Source: an uncultured Spirochaetaceae bacterium (GTDB taxonomy: Bacteria > Spirochaetota > Spirochaetia > DSM-27196 > PWMO01). From it: a stretch of DNA of 64,000 bases. Shown here piece by piece: positions 61,588 to 62,472 of this stretch. The stretch lies in the NCBI GenBank assembly GCA_964635245.1, contig CAZWNS010000001.1, forward strand, positions 9,248-73,247, read 5' to 3'. The notes beneath the pieces are model-generated. The model made no database searches. It was not told where the DNA came from and saw only the letters and a program-made list of their open reading frames with translations. The position numbers were made by a program, and so were the translations under genes. Positions within the stretch are counted from its first letter, which is position 1; every line of letters starts with the position of its first letter.

Positions 61588-61604
61588 TTGGCACGATGAT
61601 TGCT
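61588..61604 (+). promoter_or_regulatory. sigma-54 (RpoN) -24/-12 promoter
   Basis: TTGGCACGATGATTGCT matches YTGGCACG-N4-TTGCW exactly. GG at 61590-61591 and GC at 61602-61603. It lies 24 nt upstream of the sigma-factor ATG, in an AT-rich intergenic region. Confidence 0.6.
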
Positions 61605-61626
61605 TCTTTTATCCGGAGGGCCATGT

Positions 61627-62472
61627 ATGAAGAAGACTGCAGGCAACCCCGGCTACCGCGACGATACGCTGAAGGCATACTTCGATCAGATAAAGAAGAC
61701 CCCCCTGCTCACACCCGAGGAGGAGCATGAGCTGAGCCGCCGCATCCAGGATGGTGACGATGCGGCGAAAGCCAGGCTCATCGAGTCCAACCTCCGCCTG
61801 GTTGTAAAGATTGCAAAAAGCTATGTCACCTCCGACGTGTCCTTCCTCGACCTCGTCCAGGAAGGAAATCTCGGGCTCATCAAGGCTGCGTCCAAGTTCG
61901 ATTACCGGCGGAATGTCCGCTTCAGCACCTACGCGTCATGGTGGATCAAGCAGTCGATCACGCGGGCGCTCAGTAACAAGCGTCGCCAGATCCGCCTGCC
62001 GCACCGCAAGGAAGATGCGCTTCGCCGTATTCAGCGCACGTTTACGGTGCTCAGCCAGCGTCTCATGCGCACGCCTACCGTGGAAGAGGTGGGCGCGGAA
62101 GTCGGCCTCAAGCCCGAAGAGGTAACCGAGATTCTCAATATTTCGACGGCGGTCGTCTCGCTCGACTCGGATCTCAACGAGGATTCGGGCACCTTTCACG
62201 ACATTTTCGAGGACTATTCCTACGCGCCCGATACCGAGCTGATGAAGCGCTGCATGCGTGAGGAGACGCTGCGGTTCCTCGAATGCCTCAAGGATCGCGA
62301 GCGACAGATCCTGCTGTACCGCTTCGCGTTCTACGGAGGCAAGAAGTACACCCTGAAGCGCATTTCAGACGAAATGGGCATATCGCCGGAAACGGTCCGG
62401 CAGATCGAGATACGTGCCCTCAGAAAGCTCAAGGAACAGGCCGGCGAGCTCCGAGAATATGTATACGGTTGA
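61627..62472 (+). CDS. sigma-70-family sigma factor lacking region 1.1 (group 2, RpoS-like)
   Basis: YFDQIKKTPLLTPEEEHELSRRI, NLRLVVKIAKSY, DLVQEGNLGLIKAASKFDYRRNVRFSTYASWWIKQSITRAL, RERQILLYRF...ISPETVRQIEIRALRKLK. Start is ATG 61627, 7 nt after GGAGG. Confidence 0.85.
   Translation: MKKTAGNPGYRDDTLKAYFDQIKKTPLLTPEEEHELSRRIQDGDDAAKARLIESNLRLVVKIAKSYVTSDVSFLDLVQEGNLGLIKAASKFDYRRNVRFSTYASWWIKQSITRALSNKRRQIRLPHRKEDALRRIQRTFTVLSQRLMRTPTVEEVGAEVGLKPEEVTEILNISTAVVSLDSDLNEDSGTFHDIFEDYSYAPDTELMKRCMREETLRFLECLKDRERQILLYRFAFYGGKKYTLKRISDEMGISPETVRQIEIRALRKLKEQAGELREYVYG

Follow-up and report, generated by a model that had tools for sequence, protein, structure and literature searches.

A putative sigma-54 promoter conserved upstream of a Borrelia-type 'RpoS' gene across much of the Spirochaetia

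In a 64-kb stretch of DNA (64,000 nucleotides, referred to here as the window) from the metagenome-assembled genome of an uncultured Spirochaetaceae bacterium (62.7% GC; contig JBKHCO010000001.1, assembly GCA_046541815.1), a -24/-12 element of the type used by sigma-54 (RpoN) lies directly upstream of the gene for a small sigma-70-family protein, an arrangement also found at rpoS of Borrelia burgdorferi and at related genes in other spirochaetes. From sequence comparison we put a probability of about 0.85 on the reading that this element is a functional sigma-54 promoter of a small alternative sigma factor orthologous to the 'RpoS' of Borrelia, and that the two-step cascade so formed is ancestral in much of the Spirochaetia. 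The features on which this reading turns are the following.

61588-61604, plus strand: sigma-54 (RpoN) -24/-12 promoter element TTGGCACGATGATTGCT, a unique perfect match to the consensus in the window and conserved family-wide.
61615-61619, plus strand: predicted transcription start at 61615 (+/-2), placed 12 nt after the C of the -12 box and coinciding with the Shine-Dalgarno (SD) sequence GGAGG.
61627-62472, plus strand: gene for a sigma-70-family factor of 281 aa, group-2 type, assigned as orthologue of Borrelia 'RpoS' (BB0771) from Pfam domains, residue signatures and a neighbour-joining (NJ) tree.

The consensus YTGGCACG-N4-TTGCW has a single match on the two strands of the window, TTGGCACGATGATTGCT, where dinucleotide-preserving shuffles give an expectation of 0.02. 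An earlier note on this DNA, made from the letters alone, had described the element as a perfect RpoN site, put its chance occurrence at about 0.03 and counted 24 nt from the C of the -12 box to the ATG at 61627 of the sigma gene; the match is indeed perfect and the only one, the estimate was sound and the spacing is correct. The GG and GC doublets occupy 61590-61591 and 61602-61603, 10 nt apart, and the next-best GG-N10-GC sites in the window reach at most 9/11. A consensus scan of the DNA upstream of the sigma gene found no sigma-70-like promoter on the plus strand. On the minus strand a sigma-70-like match (TCGACG-18-TATAAT, 10/12, 61577..61548) overlaps the AT-rich element described below and faces flgJ, and is probably a chance occurrence. 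No Rfam family matched 61300-62700 at E values up to 1, and the reading of this region as a riboswitch or leader RNA was rejected for that reason.

The comparative set held one genome per species and comprised 59 spirochaete loci (47-76% identity), with 21 non-spirochaete homologues (39-45%) as controls. Upstream of the orthologous sigma gene the -24/-12 element is kept in essentially all of the approximately 58 spirochaete species-level genomes recovered, taxa with the promoter including Spirochaetaceae, Treponemataceae, Rectinemataceae, Alkalispirochaeta and Gracilinema, and in nearly all of the spirochaete loci a site scoring at least 9/11 precedes the start codon by 22-59 nt (typically 38 nt), whereas no such site precedes the sigma gene in any of the 21 non-spirochaete homologues. 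Perfect sites on both strands of 606 kb of spirochaete loci number 20, and every one of them lies just upstream of the sigma gene and on its strand, as do 47 of 53 sites with scores of 10/11 or better. Four loci that first looked free of the element, owing to a GC filter or a long leader, have it after all: L037 and L039 read cTTGGCACG-N4-TTGTT, and L015 and L023 carry CTGCA at -12. It is also retained in 22 loci without flg genes (Treponemataceae, Rectinemataceae and others), where the end of the upstream gene is 285-1174 nt away and in eight cases on the opposite strand.

Once the loci are aligned on the element, information is near maximal solely in TTGGCAYG and TTGCW, and the N4 spacer and both flanks vary. 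This pattern reads as a protein-binding footprint that reproduces the sigma-54 consensus position by position, and it supplies the conservation in relatives by which the earlier note had proposed to judge the site. A single 11-base match can of course arise without function, at about 0.02 per window, and a chance match of this kind would account for the window taken alone; it is already refuted, and carries a negligible probability, because perfect and near-perfect sites concentrate at one position in about 58 species while spacer and flanks diverge.

The protein encoded downstream has been given more than one name. Pfam finds Sigma70 r1_2, r2, r3 and r4 in its 281 aa and returns no match for Sigma70_r1_1, in agreement with the earlier description of a sigma-70-family protein without region 1.1, and its family is tightly conserved (281 aa, at least 70% identity across more than 100 clusters). 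The best-scoring NCBIfam model is that for proteobacterial RpoS, TIGR02394, yet its 249.8 bits fall below the curated cut-off of 378.7, as do the 242.5 bits of NF004207 below 394, and none of the RpoD equivalog models comes near its cut-off (one gives 241.8 where 572 is required). The NCBI pipeline labels P0001, which is identical to the window protein, and also P0003, P0012 and others, as 'RNA polymerase sigma factor RpoD/SigA', and at JGI these 281-aa proteins are called 'primary sigma factor'. Identity as the primary sigma factor RpoD/SigA was rejected on the missing region 1.1, the length of 281 aa and the low RpoD scores, and proteins of this family should not carry that name. Identity as proteobacterial RpoS (sigma-38) was likewise rejected, on the curated cut-offs and on NJ trees that joined it to E. 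coli RpoS in 0-5 of 100 bootstraps, so that the term 'RpoS-like' used in the earlier note holds in the Borrelia-type sense and fails in the proteobacterial one. The distance from proteobacterial RpoS fits the independent origin that Chiang and Schellhorn 2010 (as cited in PMC6719511) put forward for BB0771. From these sequence data we take the family to be the orthologous group of the Borrelia-type 'RpoS', made up of group-2 sigma factors specific to spirochaetes. In one relative with 93% identity (a 456-kb ENA contig) the sigma gene is split into an N-terminal piece, P0243 (51 aa, with a divergent tail), and the rest, P0085 (222 aa), which points to a frameshift or assembly error or else to a pseudogene.

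The promoter of B. burgdorferi rpoS was shown to be RpoN-dependent by primer extension in an rpoN mutant (PMC1976401), in agreement with the sigma-54 promoter that the earlier note gave for this gene. It is situated in the spacer between flgJ and rpoS, and flgI precedes flgJ. For comparison we took the Borrelia sequence from contigs L084 (SRR9202822) and L085 and from the oligo table of PMC3037356. On L084 the promoter, TTGGCACAGTTTTTGCAT, stands in the same spacer, its TGGCAC starting 78 nt before the ATG; it is near-identical to TTGGCACGATGATTGCT and fits the family consensus, including the flanking T and TTGCAT. The genes are ordered flhO-flgG-(144 aa)-flgI-flgJ-rpoS; L008 and other relatives show the same arrangement, flgF-flgG-flgA-flgI-flgJ-sigma, and in the window the order is flgF-flgG-flgJ-sigma. 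The earlier note's placement of an flhO-flgG cluster upstream of rpoS was right, although it had flgJ and flgI in reverse, the actual order being flgI-flgJ-rpoS. A side observation concerns L084 itself, which at 4010-4126 carries an engineered disruption of rpoS, with an AscI site (GGCGCGCC) and foreign sequence after codon 24; mutant constructs in public read sets evidently get indexed as proteins.

Borrelia RpoS was represented by 176 residues stitched from the frameshifted contig, a sequence that reproduces the published numbering of I79, R121 and K122. Two derived signatures are exclusive to Borrelia and the family: P[HY]RKE (PYRKE or PHRKE, containing R121/K122), where others have PVH[MI] or PIHI, and [KR]AA, where others have KAV. 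In NJ trees the family and Borrelia group apart from other phyla, RpoD and E. coli RpoS with bootstraps of 92-97/100. Since promoter, gene order, derived residues and NJ grouping are common to Borrelia and the family, the sigma-54-to-sigma cascade very probably predates Borrelia, which is what the earlier note had suggested and for which it had looked to phylogeny and to synteny in other Spirochaetia; both came out in its favour, the sigma gene standing right after flgJ in Borrelia and in relatives such as L008. It might be countered that the sigma gene is not orthologous to Borrelia rpoS, the arrangement having arisen independently or the gene having been replaced, in which case the age of the Borrelia cascade could not be determined. 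The identity to Borrelia RpoS of about 40%, which is no higher than that to non-spirochaete sigma factors or RpoD, would agree with this, as would the long basal Borrelia branch in an NJ-only tree built with a partial, stitched sequence. We nevertheless find it unlikely in view of the identical flgI-flgJ-(sigma-54 promoter)-sigma position in Borrelia and relatives such as L008, the near-identity of the promoters down to the flanking T and TTGCAT, the two signatures (P[HY]RKE for PVH[MI], [KR]AA for KAV) and bootstraps of 92-97/100 against 0-5/100 with E. coli RpoS.

Judged by the position of the -12 box, the window sigma mRNA is predicted to start at the SD, and its leader would be about 12 nt long. 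The in-frame start codon is the ATG at 61627, the one at 61623 being out of frame and too near the SD. The earlier note had entered the very short leader as a caveat; by prediction the leader is short, but as an objection this loses its force, because a distance of 24 nt from the -12 C to the start codon is both the mode and the median in the spirochaete family and some lineages are near-leaderless. In loci without an SD the ATG lies 13-17 nt after the -12 C, that is at the predicted +2 to +5 (L012 at about 5958-5980, L020 at about 5353-5375, and L014, L016, L040-L042 and L049), and for these a sigma mRNA with little or no leader is predicted. In L011, which is closely related to L012, a 20-nt insertion brings in two SDs instead. 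The conserved start-codon geometry makes the short leader a design feature of the family and so indirectly supports the predicted start.

Two further DNA elements upstream of the promoter are conserved in sequence and position across the family. In the window they and the hairpins around them are as follows.

61477-61494, strand not assigned: palindrome TGTATACGAATTTATACA (TGTATA-N6-TATACA), candidate upstream activator site and best motif-model match in the window.
61551-61561, strand not assigned: AT-rich element ATAAAGCCTTG, a degenerate copy of TA[AT]-N4-TTA that ends in TTG, not TTA.
61468-61505, plus strand: GC-clamped hairpin GAGCCCGGG...CCCGGGCTC around the palindrome, a 15-pair stem in the minimum-free-energy fold of 61442-61640.
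61514-61537, plus strand: small hairpin TTCCCCTTCGGGAA with a T-rich tail, weakly terminator-like, from a consensus scan whose count is not above shuffle expectation.

Almost every spirochaete locus has the palindrome TGTATA-N6-TATACA, with an A/T-rich N6, about 100 nt upstream of the -24 box. When a 22-nt model of it was scored in 54 loci, with positions counted from the T of TGGCAC, the best site was centred at -98 to -104 in nearly all of them, and the second-best in many at -131 to -137, 33 bp further up and in mirrored orientation. With a threshold of 14 bits, the stretch from -150 to -80 yields 52 sites, distributed over 50 of the 54 loci, and the remaining 568 kb yield two. The palindrome of the window, centred 103.5 nt upstream of the T of TGGCAC and at about -130 from the predicted start, is the top match of the model in 64 kb (16.4 bits, the next being 7.5), and the distal copy (about -135) is absent or degenerate there. 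Conservation of the arms extends to their sequence, beyond mere pairing. Position-locked palindromes at -100 and -133 fall in the range of an upstream activator site (about 80-150 nt upstream), which an activator may bind, and TGTATA-N6-TATACA is not known as a site for NtrC, NifA (TGT-N10-ACA) or DctD. The GC clamp of the window hairpin is not conserved in the other loci and is lineage-specific; the folded structure may double as a terminator for flgFGJ.

Counted from the -24 box, copies of the AT-rich element TA[AT]-N4-TTA cluster between -50 and -21, where 39 sites were found and the expectation per 10-bp bin is about 0.2. YAA-N4-TT is the core of sites for IHF and HU-type proteins, and because TA[AT]-N4-TTA resembles it, the element is possibly a bend site of the IHF/HU (Hbb) type between palindrome and promoter.

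For the binding of sigma-54 and its activator, the start site, the looping and the identity of the activator, we infer the following sequence of events. Sigma-54 holoenzyme would sit as a closed complex on the GG and GC doublets, and dimers of an NtrC-type AAA+ activator would bind TGTATA-N6-TATACA about 130 nt upstream of the start, a second palindrome copy lying 33 bp (three helical turns) further up in many relatives. The AT-rich TAA-N4-TTA element would aid DNA looping between palindrome and promoter, and the promoter would be opened at the expense of ATP hydrolysed by the activator, as in sigma-54 systems generally. Transcription would then begin near 61615 and yield an mRNA whose leader of about 12 nt starts at the SD, and the newly made sigma factor would redirect RNA polymerase to its own regulon. 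In the Borrelia line the promoter and the order of the genes would have persisted, while the upstream palindromes disappeared and a regulatory leader of 50 nt was acquired.

It is a tentative extension of the promoter reading, with somewhat less than an even chance, that the ancestral RpoN-to-'RpoS' step was an enhancer-dependent switch, in which an Rrp2-type activator on the palindrome pair acted by looping over the bend site on a near-leaderless promoter, and that Borrelia lost the enhancer as the spacer shrank and added the 50-nt leader with its BosR and small RNA (sRNA) control. The same sigma-54 promoter could instead be served by an activator working from solution, as Rrp2 does, with the palindromes bound by another regulator (a repressor, a Fur/PerR-type or a nucleoid protein) or forming a hairpin or terminator, and this we hold to be the less likely of the two though still a serious possibility. 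In Borrelia, Rrp2 activates rpoS without upstream DNA and does not bind the 238 bp of upstream sequence (PMC1976401); in the window a strong hairpin directly after flgJ encloses the palindrome, and the scans of the window and the loci turned up no activator gene to go with the site. On the other side, dyad sites at about -100 and -133 from the -24 box, which share one helical face at a spacing of 33 bp and are separated from the promoter by an AT-rich element, have the geometry of an enhancer, and they resemble the NtrC sites of E. coli glnAp2 at -140 and -108. They keep their distance from the promoter rather than from the end of the upstream gene, which in the 22 flg-less loci is 285-1174 nt off or on the other strand, and the arm sequences are conserved, not pairing alone. 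Finally, the sole lineage that has been shown to be enhancer-independent, Borrelia, is also the one without palindromes: in its expected zone none was found, the best score being 2 bits. A degenerate Borrelia palindrome, ATTACAAAAAAGTAAATA, was considered and rejected, as it scores 2 bits, lacks the arm G and C, is about 20 nt out of register and overlaps the flgJ stop. If an ancestral enhancer did exist, it would explain two peculiarities of Borrelia that have long stood out, an enhancer-independent Rrp2 and a requirement for BosR, and it would predict the DNA site of the conserved Rrp2 DNA-binding domain.

Several observations weigh against the promoter and its proposed control. Motif and tblastn scans of the 64-kb window and 8.5 kb beyond found no rpoN, and no sigma-54-activator AAA+ domain was found in the same DNA. 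Neither a GAFTGA motif nor a match to the NtrC AAA+ domain occurs in the window or the spirochaete loci examined, solely receiver domains having matched; the one NtrC-related match in the window is a receiver domain at 12736-13125 (plus strand) with 26% identity to the receiver of E. coli NtrC and no activator AAA+ domain. The window holds just the proximal palindrome, its AT-rich element is degenerate, and the palindrome lies inside a GC-clamped hairpin that could be simply the flgJ terminator. The palindrome model was trained on the same sites it scored, which is mitigated by the positional locking and by an untrained pattern (GT-N12-AC with an A/T-rich centre) that also peaks at -100 and -135. 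The start is a predicted one and leaves the SD at the extreme 5' end of the mRNA, which is unusual, and in Borrelia itself the upstream DNA is dispensable for rpoS activation (PMC1976401). To these are added the identity of about 40% between Borrelia RpoS and the family noted above, and a tree that is NJ over 173 columns with a frameshift-corrected, partial Borrelia sequence on a long branch.

Of these points, the want of direct sigma-54 evidence in the scanned part of this genome (window and 8.5 kb beyond) would suit a reading in which an unrelated DNA-binding protein has TTGGCAYG-N4-TTGCW as its operator, or the block belongs to a sigma-70-type promoter, its likeness to a sigma-54 site being coincidental. 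We judge this very improbable. In the block, GG and GC are invariant at a distance of 10 nt, a T precedes GG, CAYG and TTGCW are present and the spacer is free to vary, which together are the sigma-54 consensus; its homologue in Borrelia is RpoN-dependent by primer extension in an rpoN mutant (PMC1976401), and the plus strand upstream of the window gene offers no sigma-70-like promoter. A relative, moreover, does carry rpoN close by: in L054 ('Spirochaetia bacterium MS502-30'), alone among the window and relative loci scanned, a complete rpoN with Sigma54 AID, CBD and DBD domains lies at 5749-7140 (plus strand), 2.2 kb downstream of the sigma gene, from which it is separated by a SpoIID/TPR gene on the other strand.

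The genes around the sigma gene in the window were assigned from family models and gene calls, which bear out the earlier placement of the sigma gene downstream of flgF-flgG-flgJ.

59428-60294, plus strand: flgF, flhO-type proximal rod gene (TIGR02490, 191.6 bits against a cut-off of 178.5).
60330-61124, plus strand: flgG, distal rod gene (NF009456, 471 bits against a cut-off of 416).
61136-61441, plus strand: gene for a FlgJ-like protein of 101 aa with the rod-binding domain only (PF10135, 52 bits), stop codon TAG at 61439-61441.
62579-63532, plus strand: divergent polysaccharide deacetylase (PF04748, 250 bits), the downstream neighbour.

FlgF of the window is 52% identical to the product of the first gene of the Borrelia contig L084, and FlgG is 64% identical to the Borrelia FlgG encoded there. 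The FlgJ-like protein is without a muramidase domain, and Borrelia flgJ (L084 3477-3797) likewise encodes only the rod-binding domain. In the window, flgA and flgI (P-ring chaperone and P-ring) are missing between flgG and flgJ (61124-61136), whereas about half of the relatives and Borrelia have them there (L008 3266-5366; L084 1881-3493), and presence of the P-ring is therefore variable within the clade. Divergently beside flgF-flgG-flgJ, at 57813-59189 on the minus strand, stands a gene for an MltF-like lytic transglycosylase (NF008112, 497 bits), which also weakly matches the model for the Borrelia 'flagellar assembly lytic transglycosylase' BB0259 and may be the flagellar peptidoglycan-cutting partner, FlgJ here being without a muramidase. 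Downstream, the order sigma gene, PF04748 deacetylase and tsaD is conserved in most loci, even without flg genes (L081 10953-12933), which suggests a functional or transcriptional link and makes co-transcription possible.

A 2025 review calls the Borrelia cascade 'unique' (PMC12472547), a 2011 comparative study of sigma-54 lists control of sigma-S for Borrelia alone (PMC3162934), and neither that study nor a paper on RpoS phylogeny (PMC6719511) mentions the cascade in other spirochaetes; Leptospira interrogans is reported to have no RpoS (PMC12655853). We found no description of an RpoN-to-RpoS cascade outside Borrelia in the open literature, to which the search was confined, so that an earlier mention in subscription-only papers is possible. 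The parts worth following up are the conservation of the promoter across the family, the candidate enhancer and the contrast with Borrelia.

The Lyme disease spirochaete relies on Rrp2-RpoN-RpoS as its central switch for virulence, and a promoter-sigma module conserved over free-living and gut spirochaetes of several families would make the Borrelia system a reduced derivative of an old circuit. The cultured, non-pathogenic carriers Alkalispirochaeta alkalica (DSM 8900, L022) and Gracilinema caldarium (L025) could serve as models for the original signal of the cascade, TGTATA-N6-TATACA is a concrete candidate enhancer for an Rrp2-type activator, and the comparison separates what Borrelia has lost or added, namely the missing enhancer and the long BosR-protected leader.

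Among known systems, the upstream region resembles canonical enhancer-dependent sigma-54 promoters such as E. coli glnAp2 with its two NtrC sites: paired sites of dyad symmetry stand about 100-135 nt before the -24 box at a spacing of about three helical turns, with an AT-rich (IHF-like) element in between and a consensus -24/-12. It differs from them in that the regulated gene here is itself for a sigma factor. Sigma-54 stands above FliA (sigma-28) in the flagellar hierarchies of Vibrio, Pseudomonas and Campylobacter. A sigma-54-to-sigma-32 link has been predicted in enterobacteria (PMC3162934). Like both of these, the present system would have sigma-54 and its activator control the transcription of a second sigma factor, here again beside flagellar genes, but unlike the FliA cascades its target is a group-2 (RpoD-like) sigma factor, and nothing ties the regulon of that factor to late flagellar genes. 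With proteobacterial RpoS (TIGR02394/NF004207) the protein shares the group-2 architecture without region 1.1, and differs from it in having LPHRKE where E. coli has LPIHIV.

The closest counterpart is Rrp2-RpoN-RpoS of Borrelia, in which a sigma-54 promoter likewise lies between flgJ and the gene for a sigma factor of about 270-280 aa with regions 1.2 to 4 and no region 1.1, and in which, as in many relatives, the order is flhO/flgF-flgG-(flgA-like)-flgI-flgJ-sigma; the window organism differs from it in being without flgA and flgI. The leader of Borrelia rpoS is also a target of the sRNA DsrA. BosR, initially thought to bind TAAATTAAAT repeats upstream of rpoS (PMC3037356), is now reported to stabilise rpoS mRNA via the 50-nt leader (PMC11109971); the repeat is absent from the window, and the leader of 50 nt under BosR control contrasts with the leader of about 12 nt predicted in the window and of about 12 nt or none in the family. 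In Borrelia, moreover, the spacer from flgJ to the promoter is merely about 75 nt, there is no upstream palindrome and Rrp2 is enhancer-independent (PMC1976401), whereas the family of the window has conserved palindromes. Enhancer independence, the 50-nt leader and control by BosR and DsrA are on this comparison lineage-specific to Borrelia, and not features of the orthologous group as a whole.

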